This document shows, piece after piece, positions 2,975 to 25,714 of a DNA stretch of 64,000 nt (position 1 is the first letter of the stretch; each line of letters starts with the position of its first letter). A model generated the notes under the pieces. The model did no database searches. It was not told the origin of the DNA and saw only the letters and a list, made by a program, of their open reading frames with translations. The translations under genes and the position numbers were made by a program. The stretch comes from Desulfobacteraceae bacterium UBA2156 (GTDB lineage: Bacteria > Desulfobacterota > Desulfobacteria > Desulfobacterales > UBA2156): NCBI GenBank assembly GCA_002328165.1, contig DCWS01000077.1, forward strand, positions 1,624 through 65,623, given 5' to 3'.

Positions 2975-3301
2975 GTGTTGAGCATGCGGATAGACGATCA
3001 TCCCATATTGGGAACGTTTGAAAAAGGCCAGAAGGTTTCCTTCGTATTTGATGATAAAGCGATGGAAGGTTTTGAAGGGGAGCCGATTGCCGTTGCCCTC
3101 CGAAGCAACGGTGTGAAGATCCATCGTTACACGATGAGGAGAAATCAGCCCCGGGGCATTTTCTGTGCCATCGGACGTTGCACAGATTGTATCATGGTCG
3201 TCGACGGCACGCCGAATGTGCGAACCTGTGTGGAGCCGTTGCAGAAAGGGTCGGTGATCCAGACTCAAGTTGGCGCCGGTCCGGAAGTCACGAGGAAGTA
3301 A
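2975..3301 (+). CDS. Small [2Fe-2S] subunit (HcnA / opine-oxidase / sarcosine-oxidase-alpha N-terminal type)
   Basis: 108 aa. GEPIAVAL..NG and CAIGRCTDCIMVVDGTPNVRTC are characteristic of the 2Fe-2S domain that partners HcnB/OoxA-type flavoproteins. The start could also be ATG 2984. Confidence 0.7.
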   Translation: MLSMRIDDHPILGTFEKGQKVSFVFDDKAMEGFEGEPIAVALRSNGVKIHRYTMRRNQPRGIFCAIGRCTDCIMVVDGTPNVRTCVEPLQKGSVIQTQVGAGPEVTRK

Positions 3302-3304
3302 ATC

Positions 3305-4393
3305 GTGCGCAGATGTGAAATGATAAGTGTCGGAGCCGGTCCTGCGGGTTTGGCCGCTGCCACCGAAGCTGCCAGAAACGGTGTTGAAGTTTTAGTTTTT
3401 GACGAAAATGACCGGCCCGGTGGACAGCTTTTTAAACAGATTCATAAATTCTTTGGGTCAGAAGAACATCATGCCAAGGAGCGGGGTTTTGATATCGGAT
3501 ACGGTTTTCTAGAGGAGGCTGAGAAGCTGGGGGTCGAAGTCTCTTTGAGCTCTGTGGTCATGGGAATCTATGAGAACCGGACGATGAATGTCCTGATCAG
3601 AGATCGGATTGAGCAGGTAAGGGCGGAAAAGATTTTGGTTGCCACCGGTGCGTCAGAAAACATGATTCCATTTCCAGGCTGGACTCTGCCGGGCATAATC
3701 GGCGCTGGAGCGGCCCAGACCATTGCCAACATTCATGGAATAAAACCGGGCGAGAATCTGCTTATGGTCGGGTCGGGGAATGTCGGGCTCGTGGTGGCTT
3801 ATCAGATGCTTCAAGCGGGTTGTCAGGTTTCAGCCATCATAGACGCTGCTCCCCGCATCGGTGGATACGAGGTTCATGCGGCCAAGGTGGCTCGATATGG
3901 TGTCCCGTTTTTCATGTCCCATACCATCACGGAGGCGGGCGGAGAAAAATGGATTGAAAGTGCGACGATCAGCCAGGTCGATAAAGAATGGAAGCCGATT
4001 CCAGGGACCGAAAAAAAATTTGAACTCGATACGGTCTGTATTGCAGTGGGTCTCAACCCAATGACGCAGCTCCTGGATATGTTAAGCTGCAAAATGGTAC
4101 CTGTCCCGTCTCTGGGCGGAAGGGTTCCTGCGCATGACCTGGGCCAGGAAACGTCTATTCCGGGTATTTATGTAGCCGGCGATTCGTCCGGTATTGAGGA
4201 GGCCAGCACAGCCATCATCGAGGGCCGGATTGCGGGATTGGCGATTGCGCACAGCTTGGGATATATAGATGACTCGTCCTTTCTGGAACAACGTGATCGG
4301 CAATTCAAAAGCATGGTGGGGCTGCGGAGCGGTTCCCACGGAGAGGCGCGGAAAATAGCAAAAGAATATATAAATGCAGTGATGAAAGGATAG
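3305..4393 (+). CDS. FAD/NAD(P)-binding pyridine-nucleotide-disulfide oxidoreductase subunit (HcnB/OoxA/LhpF-like alpha subunit)
   Basis: 362 aa. Two Rossmann motifs (VGAGPAGLAAA..E and MVGSGNVGLVVA) and a C-terminal GIYVAGD FAD motif. Confidence 0.75.
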   Translation: MRRCEMISVGAGPAGLAAATEAARNGVEVLVFDENDRPGGQLFKQIHKFFGSEEHHAKERGFDIGYGFLEEAEKLGVEVSLSSVVMGIYENRTMNVLIRDRIEQVRAEKILVATGASENMIPFPGWTLPGIIGAGAAQTIANIHGIKPGENLLMVGSGNVGLVVAYQMLQAGCQVSAIIDAAPRIGGYEVHAAKVARYGVPFFMSHTITEAGGEKWIESATISQVDKEWKPIPGTEKKFELDTVCIAVGLNPMTQLLDMLSCKMVPVPSLGGRVPAHDLGQETSIPGIYVAGDSSGIEEASTAIIEGRIAGLAIAHSLGYIDDSSFLEQRDRQFKSMVGLRSGSHGEARKIAKEYINAVMKG

Positions 4394-4397: not shown

Positions 4398-4901
4398 ATG
4401 TCCAAGGGGATGTCAGAAACAGGATATCTCTCAGATGAAGAGCTGGATAACGGTCCTGGTATCCCTTCCGAGGGGAGACGGCGTAGAGGCCCGGTGGCGG
4501 TGCTTGAATGCATTCAGGATATCCCCTGTAACCCCTGCGAAGCGAGTTGTCCGGAAGGTGCTATCCAGGTGGGTGAGGACATCACCAATCTTCCCCATCT
4601 GTTGGAAGAGAAATGTATCGGATGTCAATCCTGCTTACCCGTTTGCCCTGGACAGGCTATTTTTTTAGTCGATGAAAGTTCGACGGAAGACGTTTCCAGG
4701 GTAACAATGCCATACGAATTTTTGCCATTACCGGAAAAGGAAGAGACTGTCATCGCATTGGATCGTGCCGGGCAGGAATTGGGCGATACAACGGTCATAA
4801 GAGTTCGGAAAACAGATAAAATGGACCATACTGCTTTGGTCACCATTGAGGTGCCGAAAGAATGGTCCATGAGAACCAGAGCGTTTAAATTAAAACGATA
4901 A
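4398..4901 (+). CDS. Ferredoxin-domain protein (2x[4Fe-4S]-type motifs) with extra C-terminal domain
   Basis: 167 aa. CNPCEASCPEGAI and CIGCQSCLPVCPGQAI motifs. Lies directly between the flavoprotein gene and the first shell gene. Confidence 0.7.
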   Translation: MSKGMSETGYLSDEELDNGPGIPSEGRRRRGPVAVLECIQDIPCNPCEASCPEGAIQVGEDITNLPHLLEEKCIGCQSCLPVCPGQAIFLVDESSTEDVSRVTMPYEFLPLPEKEETVIALDRAGQELGDTTVIRVRKTDKMDHTALVTIEVPKEWSMRTRAFKLKR

Positions 4902-4924: not shown

Positions 4925-5206
4925 ATGAACGAACAAGCGCTGGGTATGGTAGAGACCCGAGGACTGGTAGGTGCCATTGAGGCTGCCGATGCCATGGTCA
5001 AAGCCGCAAAAGTGAGATTTGTGGGAAGGGAATTTGTAGGTGGCGGTCTTGTGACGGTTTTCGTCCGCGGGGATGTTGGTGCGGTTAAAGCGGCAACAGA
5101 TGCCGGCGGTGCGGCGGCCGGAAGGGTGGGCGAACTCATCTCAGTACATGTCATCCCAAGGCCTCACGGAGACGTTGAGTTTACTATTCCCAAGGCGGAA
5201 GAATAA
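4925..5206 (+). CDS. BMC-H shell protein (PduA/EutM-type hexamer)
   Basis: 93 aa. [24 protein letters not shown]...[11 protein letters not shown]...VHVIPRP is a canonical single BMC domain. Good RBS (aggagga) upstream. Confidence 0.9.
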
Positions 5207-5397: not shown

Positions 5398-5700
5398 ATG
5401 GCTCTAAACATTCAGTTTATAACCCACCCCGGACCCGGTGTCATCAGCATCTTGATGACCCGGATGAGCACATCCGGTCGAAAAACGGTTGAAATGATCG
5501 ATTTGAGCGCCGTTGGGCTCGTCCAGGGTCGTTTGATAGATATGATCTACGCGTCTGATATCGCAGAGAAGTCTGCAAACGTTCAGGTTTTTGATCTCAA
5601 AGGAACCTGTCCGCAACATCTGACGATGATCGGTATTTTTGGCGAGATTGCGGCTGTGAAAGCCGCGCTGGATGCCATATCCGCTGAGGAGGGATTGTAG
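5398..5700 (+). CDS. Circularly permuted single-domain BMC shell protein (EutS/PduU-like)
   Basis: 100 aa. AVGLVQGRLIDMIYASDIAEKSANVQV...GEIAAVKAALDAI aligns by eye to the permuted PduU/EutS order. Confidence 0.65.
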   Translation: MALNIQFITHPGPGVISILMTRMSTSGRKTVEMIDLSAVGLVQGRLIDMIYASDIAEKSANVQVFDLKGTCPQHLTMIGIFGEIAAVKAALDAISAEEGL

Positions 5701-5762: not shown

Positions 5763-6053
5763 ATGATACTCGGTAAAATTGTCGGAGATGTCTGGTCGAC
5801 CAAAAAGAATGACAAAATCCATGCGTTAAGACTTCTCTTTGTCCAGCCCCTGGGGAAGGATTTAACCCCGTGCGGAGAAATGCTGATTGCTGCAGATGAG
5901 ATTGGGGCAGGGATGGGGGAGATGGTAATTGTCACTCAAGGCGCACCGGCCATGCAGGCATTTAACAAAGATTCGTTGATTCCTGTGGATGCCGTGGTGG
6001 TCGGTATTGTCGATAACCTTGAAATACCGGAAAAGCCAGACGCCGACGGATAA
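5763..6053 (+). CDS. BMC-P vertex pentamer (EutN/CcmL family)
   Basis: MILGKIVGDVWSTKK...LLFVQP...IAADEIGAGMGEMVIV..G...VDAVVVGIVD is a typical EutN/CcmL pattern. ATG 5763 is preferred over the TTG at 5757. Confidence 0.85.
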   Translation: MILGKIVGDVWSTKKNDKIHALRLLFVQPLGKDLTPCGEMLIAADEIGAGMGEMVIVTQGAPAMQAFNKDSLIPVDAVVVGIVDNLEIPEKPDADG

Positions 6054-7391
6054 ATGATAAAACAGGAGATTGTAGAAAAAGTCAGGGCCGCAGGCGTCGT
6101 AGGGGCAGGTGGCGCCGGTTTTCCCACCCACGTCAAACTCGAAGCGGATGTTGAAAGGGTGCTCGGGAACGGGGCATCCTGCGAACCGCTTCTGATGAGC
6201 GACCTTTTTTTGGTGGAGAACGAGTCAGAAGATATTCTCAGCGGCCTTTCCATGGTGATGCAGAGCACTGGGGCCGGACGTGGAACCCTCTGTCTCAAAG
6301 AGAAACATTTCGAAGCCTTTGGCACACTGGAAAAAATGATCTCAAAGCACAAAATAAAAGATATCGATATTTTTAGACTGGGTGATTTTTATCCGGCAGG
6401 CGACGAAATGGTTTTGGTCTATGAAGTAATGAATCGGGTGGTGCCTGAGGGTGGCTTCCCGCTACAGGTGGGGGTTGTGGTAAATAATGTTGAATCTCTT
6501 CTCAACATTGCCCGGGCTGTAAAAACCGATAAACCCGTTACCGAGAGATATCTGACCGTTGCCGGGGAGGTGCAAAAAAACTTGGTTGTGAAAGTGCCGG
6601 TCGGTATTTCTGTGGGTGAAGTCATAAACCTTGCCGGCGGTGCAACCATTAGTGATTTTAAAGTTATTGTCGGGGGACCGATGATGGGGCAGGTTGTCAC
6701 CGATCTTTCCACGTCGGTGGACAAGACCACAAGTGGAGTAATTGTTCTACCCATCAATCATAATGTCATTGCCGGCAAAACAGATGATCCGGAAAGAATC
6801 AGACAGATTACCCGTTTGTTTTGTTGCCAGTGTTCGCGGTGCACGGATCTGTGCCCAAGGACACTGCTGGGTCATTCCCTTGAATCCCATAAAATTATGC
6901 GGCAACTAGGGGTCGGGTCCCAGCTGGTCTCCGAGGCGTTGTTAGAGGATGCGCTCATCTGTTCAGAATGCGGCATATGTGAAAAGTTTGCATGTCCGAT
7001 GATGATTTCTCCACGGGAGGTCAATGCACAGATCAAGAGAGAAATGATGGAAAAAGGTGTCGACAGATCTCCCAAAAAGATCGACTATCAACCCTCGGCT
7101 TTCAGAGATGTTCGTAAGATCCCAACCAAAAGGCTTATGGAACGTTTGCAGGTGAGCCGGTACGACCAACACCCTGAAATTTTTACAGGGAAAATAGAGG
7201 TAAAAAAAGCAACGATTCCGTTAAAGCAGCACATTGGAGCACCGGCAATACCTGTGGTTAAAACCGGAGACCGTGTCGATAAGGGAGATCTCGTCGGGGA
7301 GATTCCGAATAAGACATTGGGTGCCAGGGTCCACGCCAGCATCTCCGGTGTGGTGGAATCCGTGGGAACGGACGTTGTAATCCGACAATAA
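6054..7391 (+). CDS. PduS/RnfC-like Fe-S flavoprotein (NADH-binding SLBB-type, two 4Fe-4S motifs)
   Basis: 445 aa. N-terminal GVVGAGGAGFPTHVKL, then CCQCSRCTDLCP and CSECGICEKFACP cluster motifs. Located inside the shell gene block. Confidence 0.8.
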   Translation: MIKQEIVEKVRAAGVVGAGGAGFPTHVKLEADVERVLGNGASCEPLLMSDLFLVENESEDILSGLSMVMQSTGAGRGTLCLKEKHFEAFGTLEKMISKHKIKDIDIFRLGDFYPAGDEMVLVYEVMNRVVPEGGFPLQVGVVVNNVESLLNIARAVKTDKPVTERYLTVAGEVQKNLVVKVPVGISVGEVINLAGGATISDFKVIVGGPMMGQVVTDLSTSVDKTTSGVIVLPINHNVIAGKTDDPERIRQITRLFCCQCSRCTDLCPRTLLGHSLESHKIMRQLGVGSQLVSEALLEDALICSECGICEKFACPMMISPREVNAQIKREMMEKGVDRSPKKIDYQPSAFRDVRKIPTKRLMERLQVSRYDQHPEIFTGKIEVKKATIPLKQHIGAPAIPVVKTGDRVDKGDLVGEIPNKTLGARVHASISGVVESVGTDVVIRQ

Positions 7392-7469
7392 AAGGTGGAA
7401 CCTTTGAAAAACATCGCTTTTTGCCCAAAATAAAAATCAGCATTTTTCAAAGATCTCTAGGTGTAACGA

Positions 7470-8021
7470 ATGGATTATAAGGCCATCGGGCTCATTGAAA
7501 CAAATAGTGTTGCCAAAGGAATTGAGTGCGCCGATGAAATGATCAAGGCAGCTGCCGTGGAGCTTTTGATGGCCCGCAGCGCATGTCCGGGCAGATATTT
7601 GGCGATGATCTCAGGTGATGTAGATTCAGTCGAAAATTCCGTCGATGTTGGAAGCGAAGTGGCCGGCGAGTTTCTTGTTGGAATATTTATCATTCCCAAT
7701 GTGCATTCAACGGTCTTTCCGGCTTTGGGCTGTGTCACCCCGATGCCTTCGATGAATGCCCTGGGTATCATCGAAACATTTTCCACTGTTTCTTGTATTG
7801 TTGCGGCCGATGCCGCGGCAAAAGCAGGGGATGTTGAACTGATTGAGATTCGCTGTGCCACAGGTCTGGCCGGGAAATCCTATGTCACACTGACCGGCGA
7901 CGTCGGATCGGTTAATGCTGCTGTTGATGCCGGTATCGCTGAAGTGGCGGAAGAAGGGATGATACAGAGCCATGTGGTTATCCCTTCCCCAAGCAAGGAG
8001 CTTTTTTCAAGACTGGCATAA
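7470..8021 (+). CDS. BMC-T tandem-domain shell protein, PduT-like with conserved pore cysteine
   Basis: 183 aa with two BMC domains (AIGLIETNS..., ALGIIETFS...). ARSACPGRYLAMISGDV aligns with the PduT segment TICPGKFLLMLGGDI that carries the [4Fe-4S]-ligating Cys. Confidence 0.8.
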   Translation: MDYKAIGLIETNSVAKGIECADEMIKAAAVELLMARSACPGRYLAMISGDVDSVENSVDVGSEVAGEFLVGIFIIPNVHSTVFPALGCVTPMPSMNALGIIETFSTVSCIVAADAAAKAGDVELIEIRCATGLAGKSYVTLTGDVGSVNAAVDAGIAEVAEEGMIQSHVVIPSPSKELFSRLA

Positions 8022-8872
8022 TGGAAACAATTGAAAAAATTGGCTGGATGCTAAATCAACCCGAACGGTGGGATTTTTCAGGAACGGAAAATCTGTACGC
8101 GGGTGTTGATCTTGGTACCTACAAAACCATCGTTATTGTGGTCGATGAGAAGGGAACGCCGCGTGCAGCAAACCTGCGTAAGGCTGAAGTGGTGCGGAGC
8201 GGGCTGATCGTCGATTATATAAGTGCCCTGGATATTGTCCGAGAGCTGATGGATGAGATCAGAAACTGCAGCCCCCAGAAGATAAATAAAGGAGCCACCT
8301 CATTTCCACCGCAAACCGAAACCGCCAATATCAACACTACAAAATATATACTCGAAAGTGTTGATCTAGAGGTCCTCAGGGTACTGGATGAACCGACAGC
8401 CGCAAGATTCGCACTCAATATGAGGGATGGGGCCATAGTCGATGTGGGTGGTGGCACAACCGGAGTGGCGGTCATAAGGGATGGTGAAGTCATTTATACC
8501 AATGACGAGGCGACCGGAGGAGAGCATCTGTCGCTGGTTTTGGCCGGACATCTGAATATCAGTTATGAGGAGGCCGATCAGATCAAGTTGAAAAAGGAAA
8601 ATACGCAACAGATACTTTCCATCGTTCAACCGGTCATCGATAAAATATCAAGCATTGTCGGGTCCTTTTTGAATAATTTTACCGGAATCGACACAATTTA
8701 TCTGGCAGGTGGAACATGCGAGCTTGATGGGCTAGCTGAAATTGTTTCTAAAAACCTAAACCTTGTGACCTTCCGGCCAAAGGCGCCGCAATTCATTACC
8801 CCTTTCGGCATTGCCCTTTCATGTCTTAAAACAAATGGACATGATGCTGAGGTAGGAAAATGGCCAATCTGA
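8021..8872 (+). CDS. EutJ-like actin/Hsp70-fold chaperone
   Basis: 283 aa. GVDLGTYKT, VLDEPTAA and IVDVGGGTTGVAV sugar-kinase/Hsp70 ATPase motifs. TAATG overlap with the BMC-T gene. Confidence 0.75.
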   Translation: METIEKIGWMLNQPERWDFSGTENLYAGVDLGTYKTIVIVVDEKGTPRAANLRKAEVVRSGLIVDYISALDIVRELMDEIRNCSPQKINKGATSFPPQTETANINTTKYILESVDLEVLRVLDEPTAARFALNMRDGAIVDVGGGTTGVAVIRDGEVIYTNDEATGGEHLSLVLAGHLNISYEEADQIKLKKENTQQILSIVQPVIDKISSIVGSFLNNFTGIDTIYLAGGTCELDGLAEIVSKNLNLVTFRPKAPQFITPFGIALSCLKTNGHDAEVGKWPI

Positions 8873-9663
8873 AAAAAGAAGAAATCAGACGATTTGTCCT
8901 TGATGTCTTAAAAGAGATGGGATCAACCGGAAAGAAGGAAACAAAATCGGTTTCAACGTATTCAAAGGGACCCTATGTATTCTGCATCTTCCACGCCGGT
9001 GTTCGTAAACTGGACACGGCGTTGAAACAGGTCCAACTGATTGGAGAACAGGCGGTTAAGTGTGGAATATACACGGGTGAGTCTGCTCGGGGTCGGGTTT
9101 GCGGGGGTGATGTCAGGGAGAAAGCAGGGACGCGCTGTATTCTTGATAATGTAAAGACAGACGGGTTGAATAAGGTTTTGGAAAGGGCGGATCTATTGGT
9201 ACTTCCCACCTTTTGTCTCAGGGTGGCTGCAAAAGTGGCCAATCTGATATGTGATGATCCTGAATCGAGTCTCGTTCTTTCTGCTCTGCTGCAGGGGAAA
9301 AGGATTTTGGCGACCCGAGACAGCTTCCTGGTCTGTGACATTCTGGTCAATGCGAGGCTAAAAAAAGAAATAGACAATATTTTGGAGAAACTGCAAAGTT
9401 TTGGAATGGTTTTCTGTGAAACCGGGCAGTTGAACGAGATGTTCCAGCAGTTGATCGTTGAACAGAAAAATACCGAGGGCGCTGAAGATAAAGCACCTCT
9501 AACGGAAGTGGCTGCTTCTACGGTAAAATTTATCAACGCAAAAGATGTTTACGCAGCTGTCGATCAAAAGAAGCATACCCTTGCGCTTTCTCCCGGCGGC
9601 ATTGTAACCCCCTTGGCGAAAGATCTGGCAAAGGAGTATTCAATCAAGATTGTTAAGACCTGA
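8860..9663 (+). CDS. BMC-associated protein with flavoprotein-like (CoaC/EpiD-fold-like) core, an N-terminal amphipathic helix and a C-terminal ~45-aa domain shared with the 10741 ORF
   Basis: 267 aa. ADLLVLPTFCLRVAAKVANLICDD...LLQGKRIL resembles the Flavoprotein family. The N-terminus EEIRRFVLDVLKEM is encapsulation-peptide-like. Function unknown. Confidence 0.45.
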   Translation: MANLKKEEIRRFVLDVLKEMGSTGKKETKSVSTYSKGPYVFCIFHAGVRKLDTALKQVQLIGEQAVKCGIYTGESARGRVCGGDVREKAGTRCILDNVKTDGLNKVLERADLLVLPTFCLRVAAKVANLICDDPESSLVLSALLQGKRILATRDSFLVCDILVNARLKKEIDNILEKLQSFGMVFCETGQLNEMFQQLIVEQKNTEGAEDKAPLTEVAASTVKFINAKDVYAAVDQKKHTLALSPGGIVTPLAKDLAKEYSIKIVKT

Positions 9664-9749: not shown

Positions 9750-10367
9750 ATGGCTGAACTGAGGGCCTTTTGTCATTTGGATCGGATGCAACCACAGTTT
9801 GCATCTTTATTTGCGTCCCGCTGCCGCGGTTTCCTCTCCGTGGAGGGTATGGCCTCTTTATTTGTGGAGGTGGTCCCCGGCATTGAAATCAATCGCTTAA
9901 CTGATATTGCCCTAAAAATTACAGGTTCTCTCCCGGGTGAGATGATTGTTGAGCGTCGTTACGGGATGCTGGAAATCCATTCCTTTGAGCAGGAAGAAGT
10001 GCTTCACGCCGGTCAGATGATTTTGGATGAACTGGATTTAAAAGTAGAAAATCGACTGGCGCCGGCTATTTTAACAACCAGCGTAATCAACAAGGTTGAT
10101 CCGTATCAGGCGGTGATTATCAACCGCAACAGCAGTGGAATGCTCATTTTAGGGGGTGATGATGTTTACCTTCTAGAAGTTACACCGGCTGCCTATTCTT
10201 CCATCGCAGCCAACGAAGCGGAAAAACACTGCAATATACGACTGGTTGATATCCGGTTCTTTGGAGCTGCCGGGCGGGTCTACATGGCAGGAAGCGAATC
10301 CGAAATTCAGGCAGCGGCAAAAAAAGTGGTTGACACCTTAACCGGTCTTGAGGGGAGAAACCAATGA
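9750..10367 (+). CDS. BMC-T tandem permuted shell protein, CcmP/CsoS1D-like (double-stacking type), paralog 1
   Basis: MAELRAFCHLDRMQPQF...VEVVPGIEINRLTDIALK...VERRYGMLEIH...AANEAEK...FGAAGRVYMAG matches the remembered CcmP sequence pattern along its whole length. ATG 9750 with RBS agggaga. Confidence 0.7.
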   Translation: MAELRAFCHLDRMQPQFASLFASRCRGFLSVEGMASLFVEVVPGIEINRLTDIALKITGSLPGEMIVERRYGMLEIHSFEQEEVLHAGQMILDELDLKVENRLAPAILTTSVINKVDPYQAVIINRNSSGMLILGGDDVYLLEVTPAAYSSIAANEAEKHCNIRLVDIRFFGAAGRVYMAGSESEIQAAAKKVVDTLTGLEGRNQ

Positions 10368-10383: not shown

Positions 10384-10740
10384 ATGCAACAGGCTTTGGG
10401 ATTGATTGAAACAAGAGGGCTGGTGGCTGCCATTGAGGCTGCAGACGCGATGGTTAAAGCTGCCAACGTCAAACTGTTGGGCCGTCAGAAAGTCAAAGGC
10501 GGATTGGTATCTGTCATGATTTCCGGGGATGTGGGTGCTGTTAAAGCAGCTGTCGATGCAGGCTCGGCAGCATGCGGGAAGGTGGGTGAGCTTGTTTCTA
10601 TCCATGTCATCCCCAGGCCGAGAGACGATATTGAGCATATTATTCCTAAAGGACCGCCAGAGGAAAAGCCGGCGGATAAGAAAAAAACACCAGCTCGGAA
10701 GCGGAAACCAAAAAAACATCATAAAAGTCAGGGGAAGTAA
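10384..10740 (+). CDS. BMC-H shell protein with ~30-aa lysine/arginine-rich C-terminal tail
   Basis: 118 aa. Canonical BMC domain ([24 protein letters not shown]...[11 protein letters not shown]...IHVIPRP), then [28 protein letters not shown]. Confidence 0.9.
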
Positions 10741-11331
10741 GTGGCACCTGTTTTTATATTCATCGAAGATATCCAGAAGGCTCTAGATTCGGACAAAAAG
10801 GAAATCATGATCCCCCGGGAGACGAGAATTTCAGCGGCAGCCTTCGATCTGATTAAGGGCAATGACATCCGGATTCGTTTTGTTGGCGATCAAAAGGATG
10901 ATGCTTTAAAAGCGCCTGTCGATCCGACGCAGGAGACGCAGGCATCTCCTGCTGTTGGCCGGATATCAGATGGAGAACTGGAAAAAGTTGTCGACCTAGT
11001 TATCAGCCGAATCAAAGGGGCCAAGAGTCAAGAATCCTCTGAAACCGTGAAAAAAGAAAACGGACCTACGGATGACGACCTGGTGATTTGCCGGTGCGAG
11101 GAGATTACCAAGGGAGAGATCAAGGAAGTGATCAAAAATGGGATAAAGACCCCAAATGGTATCAAGCGTATTACCCGGGCGGGGATGGGGCTTTGTCAAG
11201 GACAGACATGCCAGCGGTTGGTGACGCAGATTCTGGCCACCGGGCTCGGTATCAATCCGACTGAGATTAAACCGACGACAGGACGGGCGCCGGTCAGACC
11301 GGTTTCTTTTTCGGCTTTTTCGACTGGATAA
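10741..11331 (+). CDS. BFD-like [2Fe-2S] protein with N-terminal ~45-aa domain and an internal amphipathic helix
   Basis: 196 aa. C-terminal ICRCEEITKGEI...GMGLCQGQTCQ is the Fer2_BFD motif found in HcnB/OoxA-type enzymes. The N-terminus aligns to the C-terminus of the 8860 ORF. GTG start directly after the preceding stop. Confidence 0.6.
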   Translation: MAPVFIFIEDIQKALDSDKKEIMIPRETRISAAAFDLIKGNDIRIRFVGDQKDDALKAPVDPTQETQASPAVGRISDGELEKVVDLVISRIKGAKSQESSETVKKENGPTDDDLVICRCEEITKGEIKEVIKNGIKTPNGIKRITRAGMGLCQGQTCQRLVTQILATGLGINPTEIKPTTGRAPVRPVSFSAFSTG

Positions 11332-11375: not shown

Positions 11376-12581
11376 ATGCCCAATAAAGCAGATGTGGTCA
11401 TTATCGGCGGTGGTGTTACGGGGAACGCCATTGCATATAACTTGGCCAAAGAAGGACTAAAACCAGTCGTTATCGAGAAGTCGGACATCGGAGGAGAAGC
11501 CTCCGGTAGCACTGGTGGCGGTGTCCGCCAGTCGGCTCGAAATCTGAAAGAGATGCCTATGGCCATGGAAAGCATTCGCTTATATGGCCAACTCCATGAA
11601 GAATTGGGCATGGATGTTGAGTATGTCAGGGAAGGGAACCTTCGATTATGTACCAGTGAAGAAGAATTAGAGACCATGCGCACCTCTGTTGAAAATCAGA
11701 AATCGGTCGGGCTCAATCTTGAGATGATAGACCGAAAACAGATTCTGAAAATCAACCCCTTTGTGGGCGAAAAAGTAATCGGTGCCGGCTACTGCCCCAC
11801 AGATGGCCATGTGAACCCCTTCCTAGTCACCTATGCTTTTTTTAAAAAAGCAAAAAGTCTTGGCGCATTGTACCACACCCATGAGGAAGTGACCGACATA
11901 AGACTGAGGAGGGGTAAAGTGGTTGCGGTCATTACCGATAAACAGGAGGTTGAAACTGATCTGGTGGTCAACGCCGCAGGGATAACCGGGCGAAAGGTCG
12001 CAAATATGGTTGGGATCGATCTGCCGATGCGGCCGGTTTTTACCGAGGCTTTGATAACCGAACCTTACCCACCTTTTTTTAAACAGATGATCGGACATGC
12101 CAAAGGACTTTTTTACGGCCGCCAAACGGTTCATGGCCCCTTTCTTTGGGGTGGCTTTGTTGGCACCGAAACGTTTATCCACCAGGGAGGCAAGCCACTC
12201 TTCCACTTTATCGGTCCCGCCATTTCCCGGATGGTGATTGACTTTTTTCCCATTCTTAAAGATTTCCATGTCATTCGCACATGGTCCGGACTCATCGCTC
12301 AGATGTCTGACGGAATACCGGTTCTTGGCCTGGTTGATGAAGTCCCCGGGTTTGTGTTTGCGACAGGATTCAGCGGGCACGGTTTTGGACTGGCTCCTGT
12401 AATCGGCCGGCTCATTTCAGAATTAATTATGGATTGCGAAGCTTCTATTCCGATAAATGACTTCTGTTATTCACGGTTTTACAGAGGCGGTGATCACGAA
12501 TGCGCTTGTAAAGGAAACGCGGCCTGTACAACAGTTACCGCCATCTGTCCCAACAAAAGGGAATGGCTGAAAAGTATATGA
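11376..12581 (+). CDS. FAD-dependent oxidoreductase, DAO family (SoxB/HcnC/OoxB/LhpB/proline-dehydrogenase beta-like catalytic subunit)
   Basis: 401 aa. DVVIIGGGVTGNAIAYNLAK dinucleotide fold, GYCPTDGHVNP, and the GFSGHGFGLAPVIG C-terminal motif typical of sarcosine-oxidase-beta-like enzymes. Cys-rich C-terminal tail. Confidence 0.8.
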   Translation: MPNKADVVIIGGGVTGNAIAYNLAKEGLKPVVIEKSDIGGEASGSTGGGVRQSARNLKEMPMAMESIRLYGQLHEELGMDVEYVREGNLRLCTSEEELETMRTSVENQKSVGLNLEMIDRKQILKINPFVGEKVIGAGYCPTDGHVNPFLVTYAFFKKAKSLGALYHTHEEVTDIRLRRGKVVAVITDKQEVETDLVVNAAGITGRKVANMVGIDLPMRPVFTEALITEPYPPFFKQMIGHAKGLFYGRQTVHGPFLWGGFVGTETFIHQGGKPLFHFIGPAISRMVIDFFPILKDFHVIRTWSGLIAQMSDGIPVLGLVDEVPGFVFATGFSGHGFGLAPVIGRLISELIMDCEASIPINDFCYSRFYRGGDHECACKGNAACTTVTAICPNKREWLKSI

Positions 12582-12595: not shown

Positions 12596-13207
12596 ATGGT
12601 CGAACTCAGGGCTTTTTCCTATATGGATGAATTGCAAAAACAGTTTGTCGGTTACATCAGCACAACTGCCCGTGGGTATTATCCGGTTGCCGGCCAGGCG
12701 GCATTATTTTTAGAAATTGCCCCTGGAATCGAGATCAATTCACTTACGGATGTACTCATGAAAAAAGCGAACGTTCGACCCGGTGCCATGGTCGTGGAAA
12801 GGATCTTTGGCATGTTGGAAGTGCATGCGGATTCCCCGGCGGACGTTCATATGGCAGGTGAAGTGGCATTGGATTACTTGGGACTAAAGGAAGGCGACAG
12901 GCTAAAACCAAAAATATTGGCGACCGAAACCATAGAAAGAATAGAGCCCTATATGAGTCAGATCGTCAACCGCTTTCGGGACGCCAGCATGGTTTTATCA
13001 GATGAAACTCTTTATATCTTAGAATGTGTTCCAGCCGGGTATGCTGGATATGCGGCCAATGAGGCTGAAAAAAAAGCCGATATCAAGTTGATCCACCTCA
13101 CTGTCTTTGGTGCCACCGGCCGGGTCTATTTGGCCGGAACCACCTCCAACATTCAAGCAGCGAAAGAGGTGGCAGAAAGTTCTTTATTGGCATTGGATGG
13201 CAGGTGA
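12596..13207 (+). CDS. BMC-T tandem permuted shell protein, CcmP/CsoS1D-like, paralog 2
   Basis: 203 aa. ELRAFSYMDELQKQF...LEIAPGIEINSLTD...VERIFGMLEVH...DRLKPKI...AANEAEKKA...FGATGRVYLAG. Clear paralog of 9750-10367. Confidence 0.7.
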   Translation: MVELRAFSYMDELQKQFVGYISTTARGYYPVAGQAALFLEIAPGIEINSLTDVLMKKANVRPGAMVVERIFGMLEVHADSPADVHMAGEVALDYLGLKEGDRLKPKILATETIERIEPYMSQIVNRFRDASMVLSDETLYILECVPAGYAGYAANEAEKKADIKLIHLTVFGATGRVYLAGTTSNIQAAKEVAESSLLALDGR

Positions 13208-13231: not shown

Positions 13232-14188
13232 TTGCTTATGAATTCAGCTAAAAAAGATTTATTTGATAAAATTGTCAGGGTCTACCCCAATCTTTCTCCC
13301 AAAAAGAAACGGGTAGCGGATTACATTATCAAAGATCATAAAAAGCTTTTTCTGATGACTGCCAGAGAGATTGCTCAGGAATGCCGGGTCAGTGAGCCAA
13401 CCATTATTCGGTTCACAAACGACCTCGGGTTTTCAGGATATCAGGGGTTTGTTCAGTACATGAAGGGACTCCTCCATATCGAATTGACGGCGGTTGAAAG
13501 ACTGATAAAGGCCAGCCAGCAGTCAGACCAAGCGGATACCCTCGACAAATATTGTCAAAATGCAATACGCAATCTTGAAAATTTACGAAGTTCGATCTCT
13601 AAAAAGGAGCTGAAAAGAGTTGCCAGGGTCATTCATAATGCTGAACAGGTATATGTTGTCGGGTATCGGGCATCGACCACATTGGCTTTTTATTTCGGTT
13701 ATCTCCTCGGTAAAATTCTCGAAAATGTCTTCCTGGATACATCCCTATCCTGGAAACTCATGGATAAAATCGCGCGAAATGGCAAATCAAGCGTTATGTT
13801 TGTTATCGCTTTCCCCAGATATCCGCTGAAAGTTATTCGCCTTCTGGAATATGCCAAAAGATATCGGGTAAAAATCATCGGTCTCAGCGATACACCAAAA
13901 TCCCCCATCATCGCGCTTTCTGATCAATATATTCTTATCGACCTTGAATCGGTGTCATTTATAGATCCTTTTGCCCATATAATTACATATCTTGGCGCCC
14001 TGATTCATGAAATTACTTTTTTAGATCAGCAGCAGGCCATGAAATATCTTTCCAGGTTTGACCATGCTGCAAAATCAGGGAAAGAATTCTTCACGGAAGA
14101 AAACGCTGATTTGGAAAAGAAGCAAAAATTCGATCATTCATATCTCACATCATTTTGGCCCGGTGATCACACACATCAACCGGGTTAG
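13232..14188 (+). CDS. RpiR/MurR-family transcriptional regulator (HTH + SIS domain)
   Basis: 318 aa. N-terminal LSPKKKRVADYIIKD...TAREIAQECRVSEPTIIRF HTH_6 pattern, followed by a SIS-like region (VYVVGYRAS...). Confidence 0.8.
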   Translation: MLMNSAKKDLFDKIVRVYPNLSPKKKRVADYIIKDHKKLFLMTAREIAQECRVSEPTIIRFTNDLGFSGYQGFVQYMKGLLHIELTAVERLIKASQQSDQADTLDKYCQNAIRNLENLRSSISKKELKRVARVIHNAEQVYVVGYRASTTLAFYFGYLLGKILENVFLDTSLSWKLMDKIARNGKSSVMFVIAFPRYPLKVIRLLEYAKRYRVKIIGLSDTPKSPIIALSDQYILIDLESVSFIDPFAHIITYLGALIHEITFLDQQQAMKYLSRFDHAAKSGKEFFTEENADLEKKQKFDHSYLTSFWPGDHTHQPG

Positions 14189-14218: not shown

Positions 14219-15694
14219 ATGCGTCTTGATAAAGGACAAATCGAACAAATAGTTGAACAAGTCGTTAGATGTCTTCAGGCAGAAGGCCCCAAACGGTTGG
14301 ATTCTTTGAGAAACTCTACGGGATATAGCGGGATAGCAGATGGTGTCTTCCAGGACATGGAAGATTGTATCCAAGCCGCTTCCACCGCTCAAAAAAGACT
14401 GTTGGCTCTGCCGTTAACCGTTCGTCAGGAAATCATCCGAGCATTGCGCAGGGTTGGTATCTCCAATGCCGAAACGTATGCCCGACTGGAATTTGAAGAG
14501 ACGAGATTGGGCAAGCTTGAAGATAACGCGAAAAAAAATCTATCCGCATGCGAAGTCCCGGGCATGGAGGATCTTTCCCCTGAGGTCTATACCGGTGATA
14601 AAGGGGTAACCATAATTGAACGAATTCCTTTTGGTGTGATCGCTTCGATAAATCCAATAACCAACGGCTCACCGACGATCCTGCATAATGCTATCATGAT
14701 GTTATCTGGCGGCAACACAGTAGTGAATAACCCCCATCCCAAAACGTGGGGCGTGGCATCCAGGGTGATCAAGGATCTGAACAAAGCGGTCGTTGAGGCC
14801 GGTGGGCCACCGAACTCTATTTGCAGTCTTGAGGAACCATCGGTCGAGTCGGCCCAAAAGTTGATGACACATCCCGGTATAAGAATGATTGCGGTTACCG
14901 GCGGGCACGGGGTTGTGGCATTTGCCACCCAGACCGGAAAACGGGTTATTGCGGGCGGACCTGGGAATCCACCGGTGGTGGTCGATGAAACCGCTGACCT
15001 GAAACGGGCTGCAAAGTCTATCATCGAAGGAGCATCCTTCTCCAACTGTATTGCCTGCTCAAGTGAAAAAGAGATTTTTGTCGTTGAACCGGTGGCTGAC
15101 CGGCTGAAGGAACTGCTGAAGGATTACGGCGCCTTCGAGATCACAGCGGCACAGGGTGAAGAATTGATCAAACATATATTTACGGAAATCAAAGCACCCG
15201 GAGAACCGGGGCTCATCAACATGGATTTTATCGGCCGGTCACCCCGAACGATTTTAAAATCGATCGGTCTGGAAGTGGGTCCTGCCGTAAAGATAGCCAT
15301 TTTGGAAACCGATCGAAACCACCCCCTTGTTTGGACCGAACAGATCATGCCGGTTTTGCCGTTTATCCGTTGCCAGGATGCTGATGACGCCATAGGAGCA
15401 GCGATCGCCGCTGAACAGGGATACGGCCACACAATGGCCATTCATTCCAACAACCTGGAAAACATAAAAAAAATGGCCGGTATGGCCAAATGTGCCGCAT
15501 TTGTTAAAAATGGGTCCTGCGGTCTGGCAAGCGTTGGTGTTTCCGGAGAGGGGTATATCTCAATGCATATTGCGACCAACGGCGAAGGACAGACTCGACC
15601 AAGGACTTTTACCTTGATTAGACGCTGTGTCCTCTCAAACGATTTTCGATATCGTTTTGGGGCGGAGGTCCAGGGCCAATCGAAAACGGAATAG
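14219..15694 (+). CDS. CoA-acylating aldehyde dehydrogenase (PduP/EutE type) with N-terminal encapsulation-peptide-like helix, copy 1
   Basis: GGPGNPPVVVDETAD, catalytic-Cys region SFSNCIACSSEKE, and N-terminus MRLDKGQIEQIVEQVVRCL. ATG 14219 has a GGGAGA RBS and is preferred over GTG 14195. Confidence 0.85.
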   Translation: MRLDKGQIEQIVEQVVRCLQAEGPKRLDSLRNSTGYSGIADGVFQDMEDCIQAASTAQKRLLALPLTVRQEIIRALRRVGISNAETYARLEFEETRLGKLEDNAKKNLSACEVPGMEDLSPEVYTGDKGVTIIERIPFGVIASINPITNGSPTILHNAIMMLSGGNTVVNNPHPKTWGVASRVIKDLNKAVVEAGGPPNSICSLEEPSVESAQKLMTHPGIRMIAVTGGHGVVAFATQTGKRVIAGGPGNPPVVVDETADLKRAAKSIIEGASFSNCIACSSEKEIFVVEPVADRLKELLKDYGAFEITAAQGEELIKHIFTEIKAPGEPGLINMDFIGRSPRTILKSIGLEVGPAVKIAILETDRNHPLVWTEQIMPVLPFIRCQDADDAIGAAIAAEQGYGHTMAIHSNNLENIKKMAGMAKCAAFVKNGSCGLASVGVSGEGYISMHIATNGEGQTRPRTFTLIRRCVLSNDFRYRFGAEVQGQSKTE

Positions 15695-15704
15695 ATGGTA
15701 TGTT

Positions 15705-17141
15705 ATGGATATTGATGAAAAACAGATAGAACAGATCGTAGGGATGGTTCTGGAAAGATTATCTCCATCTGATCAGAAAATTTCTCCTGATCGATCTTTT
15801 GAAAAAGGAGATGGTGTTTTTAGAGAAATGGAGGATGCGATCCATGCGGCGGTGACTGCGCAAAAGCAATTGGTCGGTCTGCCCTTGGCCACACGTGAAA
15901 AAATTGTTCAGGGCATTCGAGATGTTTGCTGGAACAATCGTAAAGAATATGGTCGCATGGAGTTAGAGGAGACCGATATCGGAGCGAAGGAAGGAACTGT
16001 CCTGAAATTGGAAGTGGCGTGCGGTGTTCCGGGTCTTGAAGACTTGACGCCAGAGGTCTTTACGGGGGACCGGGGAATTACCGTTATAGAGAGCATCCCC
16101 GTCGGAGTCATTGCTTCTATCAACGCGGTGACTAATGCTGCGCCGAGCATCGTCAGTAACGCTATCCTGATGCTGGCTGGTGGCAACACTGTGGTCAACA
16201 ACCCCCACCCCAAAACCAAAGTTATTTCCGCCTGCGTGGTTCGTGATATCAATCAAGCCGTCGCCGATTGTGGCGGGCCGCCCAACTGTGTGAGCACCGT
16301 CGAAAACCCGGACATCCCCTCTGCGCAGCATCTGATGACCCACCCCCAGATCAATTTGATTGCGGTAACAGGCGGGCATCGGGTGGTTGAATTTGCCACT
16401 CAAACCGGCAAACGTGTCATCGCAGGCGGGCCTGGAAATCCACCGGTGGTGGTCGATGAAACCGCCGATTTAGATAATGCCGCCCAGTGTATTGTTCGGG
16501 GTGCTTCTTTGAGCAACTGTACCCCTTGTTCCAGTGAAAAAGAAATTTTTGTGGTAAAAACTGTTGCCAACCAATTAAAGGATCTCCTCAAGAAACACGG
16601 TGCATTCGAACTTACTGCTGAACAGGGCAGCGATCTGATTAAAGAGATATTCAAAGAAATTCGACCCGGCAGAGGCCCCAGTGTGATCAATATGGATTAT
16701 ATCGGCAAGCCCCCTCAGGTAATTTTGAAAAGGGCGATCGGACTGGAGATCCCGCCTGACACAAAAATTGCCATTTTGGAAACCGACAAGGAACACCCGC
16801 TCATTTGGACCGAGCAGATCATGCCGATTCTCCCGTTTGTCAGATGCCAGGATGCAGATGAAGCCATGGACATGGGGATTGCGGCTGAACAGGGGATGCG
16901 TCACACCATTGTTTTTCACTCCAATGATTTAAAAAACATCGCACGGATGGCGAGCATAGCCGATGCCTCTCAGTTTATCAAAAACGGGTCATCCATTGCA
17001 GGCCTCGGCGTTGAGGGAGAGGGATTCAAATCTCTGCACATCGCCACCGGCGGGGAAGGATTGACCCGGCCAAGGACATTCACGCTGGTCAGACGGTGTA
17101 TCCTCACCGATGATTTTCGATATCGGTTTGGGTCATTATGA
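15705..17141 (+). CDS. CoA-acylating aldehyde dehydrogenase (PduP/EutE type) with N-terminal encapsulation-peptide-like helix, copy 2
   Basis: Tandem paralog, roughly 60 percent identical by eye. GGPGNPPVVVDETAD, SLSNCTPCSSEKE, and N-terminus MDIDEKQIEQIVGMVLERL. ATG 15705 lies just after the copy-1 stop. Confidence 0.85.
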   Translation: MDIDEKQIEQIVGMVLERLSPSDQKISPDRSFEKGDGVFREMEDAIHAAVTAQKQLVGLPLATREKIVQGIRDVCWNNRKEYGRMELEETDIGAKEGTVLKLEVACGVPGLEDLTPEVFTGDRGITVIESIPVGVIASINAVTNAAPSIVSNAILMLAGGNTVVNNPHPKTKVISACVVRDINQAVADCGGPPNCVSTVENPDIPSAQHLMTHPQINLIAVTGGHRVVEFATQTGKRVIAGGPGNPPVVVDETADLDNAAQCIVRGASLSNCTPCSSEKEIFVVKTVANQLKDLLKKHGAFELTAEQGSDLIKEIFKEIRPGRGPSVINMDYIGKPPQVILKRAIGLEIPPDTKIAILETDKEHPLIWTEQIMPILPFVRCQDADEAMDMGIAAEQGMRHTIVFHSNDLKNIARMASIADASQFIKNGSSIAGLGVEGEGFKSLHIATGGEGLTRPRTFTLVRRCILTDDFRYRFGSL

Positions 17142-17154: not shown

Positions 17155-17586
17155 ATGGGGAACCGCATGGCTATGGACTTAATGAAGAGAGAAAATTTTT
17201 CATCCGGTGCACCTTTGGAAGAAAAAATCGGATACAGCCGGACGGTAAAAATTGGAAATCTTGTATTTATAGGCGGTACAACCACCACCAATTCAAAAGG
17301 GATAGTGGAGGGTGAAGGGGATGCCTACCTTCAGACCAGGATCATACTCGAGAAGATCGAAAAGGCACTGAAAAAGGCAGGAGCCAGACTTTCAGAAGTA
17401 TACCGGGTCCGCATATATGTTACCGATATCAGTCGTTCAGAGGAATACATGCGGGCTTATTCCGAATTTTTCAAAAAGGTTAAGCCAGTTACCATTTTGG
17501 CAGAAGTGAAAGCCTTGGTTCGACCCGCTCATCTGGTGGAGATCGAAGCCGATGCCATTATCGGCTCATATCTTGTGCGCAAATAA
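17155..17586 (+). CDS. RidA/YjgF/L-PSP-family enamine/imine deaminase
   Basis: ~143 aa. GYSRTVKIGNLVFIGGTT...RIYVTD...ILAEVKAL..P..LVEIEADA is the RidA-family pattern. The start among the 17155-17182 ATGs is uncertain. Confidence 0.75.
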   Translation: MGNRMAMDLMKRENFSSGAPLEEKIGYSRTVKIGNLVFIGGTTTTNSKGIVEGEGDAYLQTRIILEKIEKALKKAGARLSEVYRVRIYVTDISRSEEYMRAYSEFFKKVKPVTILAEVKALVRPAHLVEIEADAIIGSYLVRK

Positions 17587-17650
17587 GAACTCAAGTTTCG
17601 CATCTGATATTTTGAGAAAAGCCGCATCAGGCGTATACCTTGGAAGGCCG

Positions 17651-20065: not shown

Positions 20066-20284
20066 GATAAAAAGCGGTGCTTTTTATTGAAGGCTTTTTT
20101 GCTTTTCGCTTTTCAGCAGAGAGCAAAAAAGTAAAGCGCAGAGGGGGTGGGTTGTTGGTTCCCCGGTTAACAACGTTAGTACTCTTCTTTTTTGTGAAAA
20201 ATCTTATTATTCGCCCCACACCGGATGCGGGTCTTTGTTAAATAAAAGGTGTGAAACTTAAGTTATTGATTCGTAAAGGGGGCT

Positions 20285-20779: not shown

Positions 20780-20911
20780 TCTTCTTTTAAAAAGTCTTTT
20801 ATGAGCGGCATTGAGTCCCGCCAGCAGCGGGAGAAATAGCGGAATGAAATGCTGAATCTTAAAAATTGTAAATTGTTCGATCCATCCTCAAATGGTTTTT
20901 AGCGGAGGCCC

Positions 20912-24438: not shown

Positions 24439-24531
24439 ATGAAAAAAGTAAAGAATACCGAAATTAAACGTGCCCTCTGCTTCGGTTGCTGGCTTCAGAC
24501 AGGTGCGGGCAAGGAGATAAAAAATCAATGA
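24439..24531 (+). pseudogene. 30-codon ORF that is a relic copy of the N-terminus of a molybdopterin oxidoreductase; its stop overlaps (ATGA) the rdhA-like start
   Basis: MKKVKNTEIKRALCFGCWLQTGAG... versus MQKIETAEVKRAICFGCWLQAGVL... at 25715. Strong RBS aaaggaga 5 nt upstream. Confidence 0.5.
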
Positions 24532-25685: not shown

Positions 25686-25714
25686 GCGGCCAATTCATTC
25701 CGGATGGAGATATA

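Follow-up and report, generated by a model that had tools for sequence, protein, structure and literature searches.

The closest described relative of the system reported here is a pair of proteins from bacterial microcompartments (BMCs), formed by the metabolosome NADH dehydrogenase (MNdh), a PduS-type flavoprotein, and the shell protein BMC-T^SE. Among more than 7,000 BMC loci, 2,172 encode MNdh, which lies beside a BMC-T gene in 97% of them and occurs only in loci with an aldehyde dehydrogenase; a pore cysteine motif is universal in the MNdh-adjacent BMC-T proteins, and 361 loci carry the MNdh/BMC-T^SE pair without an alcohol dehydrogenase (Sutter et al. 2024, PMC11626177). Here we describe such a pair, encoded at positions 6054-7391 and 7470-8021 of a 64,000-nucleotide stretch of contig DCWS01000077.1 (Desulfobacteraceae bacterium UBA2156; the whole stretch is hereafter called the window), together with the BMC locus that surrounds it.

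The purified complex of the C. botulinum GRM1 compartment has been shown to oxidize NADH, with NADH-dependent reduction of the BMC-T cluster seen by electron paramagnetic resonance, and the authors, who also used voltammetry, assigned potentials of -0.349, -0.217 and -0.147 V to the three clusters (PMC11626177). The electron path established in vitro runs from NADH to FMN, to the Fe-S clusters and on to the pore cluster. In the model of these authors the exported electrons stem from the NADH that the aldehyde dehydrogenase produces, and MNdh/BMC-T^SE was proposed to replace alcohol dehydrogenase in NAD+ recycling, handing the electrons to some cytosolic carrier that the authors did not specify; they noted no acceptor that specifically accompanies the pair (PMC11626177). 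A further point of reference is the BMC type MIC6, which was catalogued from three loci of anaerobic Deltaproteobacteria, such as Desulfobacteraceae bacterium 4484_190.3, and is listed with an incomplete core and with PduT-type and GrpU-type proteins predicted to have Fe-S pores (Sutter et al. 2021).

A predicted electron-export module

We estimate a probability of about 0.75 that the pair in the window is the standard MNdh/BMC-T^SE electron-export module, here in a MIC6-type locus of a marine Desulfobacterales bacterium. The locus occupies the first 22 kb of the window, and all of its genes are on the forward strand. The genes of the pair are separated by 78 nucleotides. The first (6054-7391) codes for a protein of 445 residues with all four domains that define MNdh, namely Complex1_51K (PF01512, residues 10-153), SLBB (PF10531, 167-212), Fer4_17 (PF13534, 256-318) and RnfC_N (PF13375, 384-440), the last being permuted to the C-terminus. 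The closest solved relatives are RnfC subunits, with 7zc6_C as the best match (E 1.9e-52), and the match falls into two swapped pieces, residues 387-438 corresponding to RnfC 34-84 and residues 3-316 to RnfC 120-416. This circular permutation is what sets PduS/MNdh apart from RnfC (Sutter et al. 2024, PMC11626177). The FMN/NADH motif GAGGAGFP is found at residues 17-24 (nucleotides 6102-6125), and two tetracysteine motifs, CCQCSRCTDLCP (residues 257-268, nucleotides 6822-6857) and CSECGICEKFACP (residues 303-315, nucleotides 6960-6998), coincide in the alignment with the cysteines of the RnfC clusters (7zc6). Both GAGGAGFP and all eight cluster cysteines are invariant (n=8 orthologs), and the MNdh gene lies directly upstream of the BMC-T^SE gene in 10 of the 10 related loci that span this region.

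The second gene (7470-8021) codes for a protein of 183 residues with two tandem PF00936 domains (E 1.2e-47), as in the single-layer BMC-T^S type of about 184 residues. Its closest solved relative is the D. hafniense BMC-T 3nwg (E 1e-53; full length, gapless), and it aligns end to end and without gaps with PduT of C. freundii (3pac, E 8.4e-44) and of S. enterica (3n79, E 6.3e-41). In these alignments Cys39 (codon TGT, nucleotides 7584-7586) of the segment ARSAC39PGRY stands opposite Cys38 of PduT, the cluster-ligating residue of SKTIC38PGKF, and opposite the serine of SKTISPGKF in 3n79, for which Foldseek gives the label 'PduT C38S mutant'. The sequence C39-P-G-R-Y fits the published PduT-type pore motif C-P/S/A-G-K/R/S-Y/F (Ferlez et al. 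2019). Cys39 is found in every member (121/121) of a sequence set consisting of the window protein and of 120 homologs that share 58-96% identity with it; the other four cysteines are kept in 47-96% of the sequences.

In an AlphaFold2 model computed from a 36-sequence alignment (pLDDT 90.6, pTM 0.86), Cys39 occupies the tip of the hairpin formed by beta2 and beta3, where strand 30-39 ends and shortly before the turn to strand 42-49. A Foldseek search of the PDB with this model returned an engineered [4Fe-4S] BMC-T (5dii, TM 0.89), 3nwg (0.86), PduT 3pac (0.77), which is labelled in the PDB as 'PduT... with 4Fe-4S cluster binding site', and 3n79 (0.75). By analogy with these proteins, the shell protein of the window is of the PduT type and is predicted to carry a [4Fe-4S] cluster at the three-fold pore, bound through Cys39 of each protomer. 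The initial annotation had aligned this cysteine with the PduT cluster ligand by eye, and comparison with the PduT structures leaves it at the pore position, with no displacement from the pore. Its description of the preceding gene as PduS/RnfC-like, with GAGGAGFP and two 4Fe-4S motifs, likewise agrees with the domain matches and the 7zc6 alignment.

Another cysteine of the shell protein, Cys129 (about nucleotides 7854-7856), is located in domain 2 just before the pore loop and is kept in 116 of 121 homologs. PduT and 3nwg have Met or Ile at the corresponding position, and the loop beside Cys129 has the lowest confidence of the model (pLDDT about 74).

The pair co-occurs with two acylating aldehyde dehydrogenases, both of which have N-terminal encapsulation peptides. 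The first (14219-15694) scores above the cut-off of NF011927 (527 bits) and has the peptide QIEQIVEQVV, and the second (15705-17141), a paralog (PF00171), has the peptide QIEQIVGMVLERL. Neither an alcohol dehydrogenase, as the initial annotation had noticed, nor a PduL-type phosphotransacylase (PF06130) was found among the main non-nested open reading frames of at least 140 amino acids in the 64-kb window. The locus shares with the published MNdh/BMC-T^SE systems the four-domain permuted RnfC-like flavoprotein, the adjacent BMC-T^S with a pore cysteine and the presence of aldehyde dehydrogenase, and it belongs to the class of 361 loci that lack alcohol dehydrogenase. It differs from the C. botulinum GRM1 system in its BMC type (MIC6), its host phylum (Desulfobacterota) and its CPGR motif, and it adds to the 2024 module a GrpU-type Fe-S BMC-H protein and co-encoded Fe-S proteins as possible specific partners. 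In comparison with PduS and PduT of Salmonella and Citrobacter (3pac, 3n79), the domain order of the flavoprotein is the same and BMC-T shows 37-40% identity in a gapless full-length alignment, Cys39 being equivalent to Cys38, but the B12-dependent diol dehydratase, PduO and the alcohol dehydrogenase PduQ are missing from the window.

Proposed electron path

For the oxidation of NADH, the binding of clusters and the direction in which electrons move we rely on experiments with homologs of the window pair, and the pair is expected to behave in the same way. In the lumen, the encapsulated acylating aldehyde dehydrogenases (14219-17141) would convert an aldehyde to acyl-CoA and yield NADH. MNdh would dock on the lumenal face of the BMC-T trimer, where its FMN would oxidize NADH and pass single electrons through the two [4Fe-4S] clusters to the [4Fe-4S] cluster in the three-fold pore, held by Cys39 of each protomer. 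At the outer face a cytosolic carrier would accept the electrons, and the net effect would be the regeneration of NAD+ without alcohol dehydrogenase. The initial annotation had favored electron export through the shell as an alternative, or an addition, to NAD+/NADH recycling. Export as such is supported by homology to MNdh/BMC-T^SE. The opposition to recycling is not, since export of electrons from the NADH of the aldehyde dehydrogenase makes the module a NAD+ recycling system in its own right.

Some features of the locus weigh against this scheme. The pore motif is CPGR and not the CP(G/S)K of Sutter et al. (2024), although CPGR is nonetheless the commonest form in this BMC-T clade (66 of 121 sequences, compared with 35 for CAGK and 17 for CPGK). 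The three Cys39 residues of a trimer would provide only three ligands for the predicted cluster. Finally, the presence of a second Fe-S pore protein and of a flavoprotein dehydrogenase from a family that does not use NAD, both described below, means that a scheme fed by NADH only may be incomplete here.

The mechanism was published in 2024 and the locus type was catalogued in 2021, so that the window is a further environmental example; taken by itself, the finding adds one more case of a known module and leaves its understanding unchanged. Its residual value lies in the fact that MIC6 is a metabolosome type without an assigned substrate or signature enzyme, and this locus hints at a candidate for the latter and at dedicated electron partners. 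In the loci sampled, strict synteny joins MNdh/BMC-T^SE to the second Fe-S pore protein, the non-NAD flavoprotein dehydrogenase and the co-encoded Fe-S proteins, and MIC6 thereby supplies concrete, cloneable acceptor candidates, where the 2024 study found no specific acceptor.

Assignment to MIC6 and conservation of the module

By its gene content the locus belongs to MIC6 as catalogued, which the initial annotation had overlooked. The shell proteins comprise two BMC-H (4925-5206, PF00936 E 4.6e-28; 10384-10740, PF00936 E 6.6e-30, with a Lys-rich C-terminal tail), the BMC-P vertex protein (5763-6053, PF03319 E 4.9e-26), two CcmP-like BMC-T^dp (copy 1, 9750-10367, NF053796 E 3.4e-66 and PF27545; copy 2, 12596-13207, NF053796 E 3.3e-67), the PduT-type BMC-T^s and a BMC-H^p of the GrpU type. 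On the enzyme side there are an aldehyde dehydrogenase with an encapsulation peptide, a PF04324 [2Fe-2S] protein and a PF01266 (DAO) protein with an extension of about 30 residues containing four cysteines. The absence of a PF06130 phosphotransacylase from the window corresponds to the incomplete core of MIC6, and the nearest loci are from Desulfobacterales and Syntrophobacteraceae metagenome-assembled genomes (MAGs). All features listed in the catalog are also present in the window, which has in addition a tandem duplicate of the aldehyde dehydrogenase gene and a gene of the OYE family. The catalog names no signature enzyme for MIC6 and does not discuss the glutamine-synthetase-like, GlxBCD-like, Fer2_4, Pyr_redox_2 and Fer4 genes. 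A literature search retrieved no paper that characterizes MIC6 or that ties BMCs to the N-methylglutamate pathway.

The DAO protein is 74-98% identical in nine genome-derived loci (Desulfobacterales, Desulfobacter and Syntrophobacteraceae MAGs), and the copy in MAG HyVt-363 shares 98% identity with the one in the window. Look-ups starting from three PduT homologs added two more loci and the upstream extension of one of the nine, giving 11 related loci. In these 11 loci the gene order of a module of about 22 kb is kept, where the contigs reach, from a glutamine-synthetase-like gene to the RidA gene and the TRAP transporter. Variable elements are the OYE gene, BMC-H2 and the second aldehyde dehydrogenase, and the flanking genes differ. 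What may be new here is the synteny of the entire module in these loci, including the split 'dye-linked' amine dehydrogenase with an encapsulation peptide on one piece, and the upstream glutamine-synthetase-like and glutamate-synthase/GlxBCD-like genes, the latter with a retained [3Fe-4S] motif, as conserved parts of MIC6. Homolog searches of metagenomes yielded 1,195 clusters for BMC-T (E<=1e-20) and 591 for the Fer4 protein (E<=1e-10), not all of which need be MIC6; compared with the three loci of the 2021 catalog, MIC6-like loci are far commoner in metagenomes. In the published shell-protein trees (Sutter et al. 2021), Desulfatibacillum DSM 16219, of a cultured genus, has a PduT-type protein that is a close relative, and this organism may offer a cultured system once a MIC6 locus has been confirmed there.

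Several of the related loci (L006, L008, L010, L020 and L021) have only one aldehyde dehydrogenase. The fastest-diverging proteins of the module are MNdh, BMC-T^SE, the GrpU-type protein and the BFD/A3 protein (44-77% identity); DAO, the FMN subunit, BMC-H1 and BMC-T^dp diverge more slowly (75-92%).

A second candidate Fe-S pore protein

The gene at 5398-5700, which is missing from the initial inventory of Fe-S proteins, encodes a GrpU-type permuted BMC-H protein of 100 residues (4olo, E 1.1e-19; 4olp, E 2e-16). It has a circularly permuted BMC domain and a G-[ST]-C-P-Q pore loop, with KGTC71PQH aligned on the SCPQ loop of GrpU (4olo, 4olp), and its CPQH sequence is conserved (n=8 orthologs). 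These features make it a second candidate for an Fe-S pore protein, in line with the GrpU-type Fe-S pore protein already noted for MIC6 (Sutter et al. 2021 supplement). Like the PduT-type pore protein, it is present in every related locus. The permuted BMC-H fold and the pore loop are shared with GrpU of glycyl-radical compartments, but the window protein occurs without a glycyl radical enzyme or activase; the role in activase reduction proposed for GrpU therefore cannot apply here. Two co-conserved Fe-S pore proteins would fit two electron routes.

A putative dye-linked dehydrogenase as a possible additional electron source

The DAO-family flavoprotein (11376-12581, PF01266 E 2e-71) corresponds to the beta subunit of heterooligomeric dye-linked dehydrogenases, and its best match in the PDB is the L-proline dehydrogenase beta subunit of P. 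horikoshii (1y56_B, E 4.3e-55). Its C-terminus carries the MIC6-specific four-cysteine tail HECACKGNAACTTVTAICPNKREWLKSI, which might bind a metal or a cluster, or else serve as a peptide for docking to the shell. Across 10 sequences the tail ECxCxGNAxCTTxTAxCPNKREWLKSI (nucleotides 12495-12581, forward strand), including the final PNKREWLKSI, is almost invariant. DAO is a candidate signature enzyme of MIC6.

Three other proteins each match a different part of SoxA (residues 10-99, 273-459 and 530-582 in all, the last stretch being matched by the BFD/A3 protein): the gamma-subunit-like Fer2_4 [2Fe-2S] protein (2975-3301, PF13510 E 3e-26), the Pyr_redox_2 FAD protein (3305-4393; TIGR01372 soxA E 2e-40, 2gag_A E 1e-19), which resembles the middle piece of SoxA or the alpha subunit, and the BFD/A3 protein (10741-11331), which combines a [2Fe-2S] BFD domain (PF04324) with a SoxA-A3 domain (SO_alpha_A3, PF17806) and equals the C-terminal piece of the alpha subunit. 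The conserved motif C-x4-C-x2-C-x12-C of the Fer2_4 protein agrees with that of the dye-linked dehydrogenase family (C-x4-C-x2-C-x11-12-C). DAO as beta, Fer2_4 as gamma and an alpha component with an ADP-binding fold and a C-x-C...C-x4-C motif are all encoded, with a spacer in the alpha-type motif of about 34 residues compared with 15-20 in the published description. Members of this family, including opine, D-hydroxyproline and L-proline dehydrogenases and HCN synthase, were described in 2015 as reducing only dyes or cytochrome c and not NAD(P)+ or O2.

OdhABC, D-hydroxyproline dehydrogenase, HcnABC and the archaeal L-proline dehydrogenase 1y56 have the same DAO beta and Fer2_4 gamma subunits and the same alpha elements, the FAD fold and the C-x-C...C-x4-C [2Fe-2S] site. 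In the window, however, two separate genes, 6 kb from each other and with shell genes between them, encode the alpha subunit, the FAD piece lying upstream of the shell genes and the BFD/A3 piece adjoining DAO. One alpha piece has an encapsulation peptide, the beta subunit has the extra four-cysteine tail, and the whole is accompanied by an additional 2x[4Fe-4S] protein and embedded in a BMC locus. In an ortholog alignment of BFD/A3, the N-domain and an amphipathic helix (ISDGELEKVVDLVISRIKG, from nucleotide 10963) are conserved, and a linker is variable. This helix is typical of encapsulation peptides, which suggests that the dehydrogenase complex is probably lumenal. Comparable helices are present in both aldehyde dehydrogenases and in the TIGR02536-like protein, and no evident encapsulation peptide was found in the Fer2_4 or Fer4 protein. 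A by-eye likeness between the BFD/A3 N-domain and the C-terminus of the TIGR02536-like protein was unsupported by BLASTP (E 16).

The 2x[4Fe-4S] ferredoxin-domain (Fer4) protein of 167 residues (4398-4901) is orthologous to B1H13_00900 of the MIC6 reference MAG. Its best 120 matches are all at least 63% identical and so are probably orthologs, and the protein is a candidate electron partner or acceptor. The initial annotation had listed this di-cluster protein and two [2Fe-2S] proteins, now identified as Fer2_4 and Fer2_BFD (10741-11331), and had called the locus unusually rich in one-electron carriers. That impression is qualitatively right, and the sites are more numerous than it had counted. 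Candidate metal sites are found in MNdh (two [4Fe-4S]), the BMC-T and GrpU-type pores, Fer2_4 (C-x4-C-x2-C-x12-C), BFD (C-x-C...C-x4-C) and the Fer4 protein (two clusters), and further ones in the FMN subunit (C-x5-C-x4-C), the DAO tail (four cysteines) and the OYE protein (C-x2-C-x2-C-x11-C).

These proteins raise the possibility, tentative but worth weighing, that the MNdh/BMC-T^SE pair mainly or additionally serves a flavoprotein amine dehydrogenase rather than the aldehyde dehydrogenase, which is where the initial annotation had laid its stress. The enzyme would be composed of DAO beta and BFD/A3, possibly with Fer2_4, Pyr_redox_2 and Fer4, and its electrons would go directly to the PduT- or GrpU-type pore or pass through NADH formed by the Pyr_redox_2 subunit. 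A non-NAD flavoprotein dehydrogenase in the lumen, needing an electron exit, is a reasonable but unproven assumption. It accords with the acceptor range of the closest characterized relatives, with P. horikoshii L-proline dehydrogenase beta as the nearest solved relative of DAO, with the BMC-specific conserved tail, with the probable lumenal location indicated by the BFD/A3 helix, and with the retention of two distinct Fe-S pore proteins in every related locus. Against this, the NADH/FMN site of MNdh is intact and MNdh is a NADH oxidase in published work; moreover, MNdh/BMC-T^SE is found in numerous BMC types lacking a flavoprotein of this kind, and its phylogeny does not follow BMC type (PMC11626177). 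Export of aldehyde dehydrogenase electrons by the MNdh/BMC-T^SE pair is accordingly preferred, and by analogy with a family that does not use NAD(P)+ or O2 a direct role of the flavin dehydrogenase in export is plausible.

Upstream nitrogen genes

The first genes of the window encode a GATase_6 protein (82-981, GlxB-like), a GXGXG protein (969-1673, GlxC-like) and a protein with the FMN domain of glutamate synthase (1670-2962, GlxD-like). On the parent contig, a 121-kb Tara Oceans metagenome contig, the window is immediately preceded by a glutamine-synthetase-like gene (L001 1168-2505). Together, the glutamine-synthetase-like and GATase/GXGXG/FMN genes form the conserved 5' end of the module in three further loci and on the window's own contig. 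Identities to the proteins of the Rhizobium N-methylglutamate cluster are 32% (GlnT), 33% (GlxB), 26% (GlxC) and 47% (GlxD); in Rhizobium, glxBCD-glnT are neighbors of soxBDAG within the cluster for the N-methylglutamate pathway. In the window, the FMN subunit has retained C-x5-C-x4-C (GCVVCLRCHEGKC, from nucleotide 2669), a motif that lines up with the [3Fe-4S] cysteines of GltA from B. subtilis.

The N-methylglutamate cluster (gmaS/glnT - mgsABC/glxBCD - mgdABCD/soxBDAG; Rhizobium etli pRetIE4803a) resembles the window genes in its three component types and in the B-C-D gene order, and a Sox-like dehydrogenase is encoded in both systems. In contrast to the FMN subunit of the window, GlxD lacks the [3Fe-4S] cysteines of glutamate synthase, and the MgsABC type is defined without a redox Fe-S center. 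The window dehydrogenase, for its part, lacks the folate-binding domain and the delta and gamma Sox subunits: no GCV_T (folate-binding) domain and no SoxD or SoxG homolog was found in its pieces, which sets it apart from the heterotetrameric Sox-type N-methylglutamate dehydrogenase. DAO is closer to L-proline dehydrogenase beta. The glutamine-synthetase-like protein is as near to true glutamine synthetase as to glutamate-methylamine ligase (PDB matches of 1e-67 and 7e-66, about equal) and scores below the NCBIfam cut-offs for GSIII, GlnA and PuuA.

This gene content suggests a gamma-glutamyl or N-substituted-glutamate route by which the compartment would be supplied with an amine. Alternatively, the genes encode a split glutamate synthase with glutamine synthetase, which would consume exported electrons and released ammonia. 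Under both readings the cytosolic [3Fe-4S]-FMN enzyme, co-transcribed with the organelle, is a candidate sink for the exported electrons.

It is conceivable, if rather improbable, that MIC6 is the first metabolosome in which the signature reaction itself is wired through the shell, with a dedicated acceptor and amine substrates. A lumenal dye-linked amine dehydrogenase, consisting of DAO and the BFD/A3 protein with its encapsulation peptide, would make the aldehyde, and its electrons would exit by one Fe-S pore, for example of the GrpU type. The electrons of the aldehyde dehydrogenase NADH would leave through MNdh/BMC-T^SE. Outside, Fer4, Fer2_4 and Pyr_redox_2 would carry electrons to the [3Fe-4S]-FMN glutamate-synthase/GlxD-like enzyme, which would either make the N-substituted glutamate substrate, by a gamma-glutamyl route like that of N-methylglutamate with the glutamine-synthetase-like ligase as its start, or re-assimilate the released ammonia. 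The proposal draws only on gene content and synteny. If true, a BMC would have a dedicated electron acceptor to which it is linked genetically, and amines would be the class of substrates for a compartment whose function is unassigned.

Unlikely alternatives: electron import and cobalamin reduction

The direction of transfer could also be reversed, with reduced cytosolic ferredoxin-type carriers feeding electrons through the pore for lumenal reduction or cofactor activation. The clusters of PduT and GrpU are reachable from both faces, import has been proposed for GRM compartments, where it was discussed for glycyl-radical enzyme activation (Ferlez et al. 2019), and several low-potential-type Fe-S proteins are encoded at the locus. 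We regard import as very unlikely here: the locus lacks genes for a glycyl radical enzyme, an activase or any other obvious reductase of the lumen, the lumen would hold two NADH-producing aldehyde dehydrogenases and no other NAD+ regenerating enzyme, and the potentials measured for the C. botulinum complex favor transfer from NADH to FMN and the clusters. A cobalamin reductase function of the PduS-like protein, with the PduT-like protein supporting B12 recycling, goes back to the historical assignment of PduS in Salmonella and Citrobacter and is rejected as barely credible, as the locus contains no B12-dependent enzyme, adenosyltransferase or reactivase and Sutter et al. (2024) argue against a direct role in B12 metabolism.

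Other genes of the locus and flanking regions

Downstream of the BMC-T^SE gene, the locus encodes an actin-like protein of the EutJ family (8021-8872; NF011660, 312 bits, above cut-off) and a TIGR02536-like 'eut_hyp' protein (8860-9663) with the N-terminal encapsulation-peptide-like helix EEIRRFVLDVLKEM, for which searches returned no solved relative and no Pfam match. RpiR is encoded at 13238-14188, between BMC-T^dp copy 2 and the first aldehyde dehydrogenase. An imine/enamine deaminase of the RidA family (17167-17586, PF01042) marks the conserved 3' end of the module by synteny.

The OYE-family FMN protein (17552-18778) has the motif C-x2-C-x2-C-x11-C as in the 2,4-dienoyl-CoA reductase/BaiCD family. 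It lacks the C-terminal NAD(P)H-binding domain of that family and would therefore need an external electron donor. The TRAP transporter (19007-22213) gives no clue to a substrate, since all solved relatives of its solute-binding protein are distant (the best being a lactate binder, E 1e-27).

Just downstream of the transporter, two open reading frames on the forward strand are probably gene remnants: one of 119 residues (22314-22673) matches only a fragment of the glycine-cleavage P-protein, and one of 114 residues (22769-23113) matches only a fragment of the C-terminal domain of NAD kinase. They are followed by a CN_hydrolase gene (23149-24354) and, at 24486-27973 on the forward strand, by a Fer4/reductive-dehalogenase-like protein (weak matches) and then by a molybdopterin oxidoreductase that has an Fe4S4 domain. 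In the related locus L021 the MIC6 module likewise has a molybdopterin oxidoreductase gene at its flank, on the opposite side. Two long open reading frames, at 56944-58200 (reverse strand, 418 residues) and 61884-63287 (forward strand, 467 residues), have no Pfam match at the thresholds used. The reverse strand at 34566-42027 carries a cluster for a multisubunit cation/proton antiporter of the Mrp/Mnh type, with three Proton_antipo_M proteins, MnhB and MnhE, which is preceded by a gene for a cNMP-binding protein.

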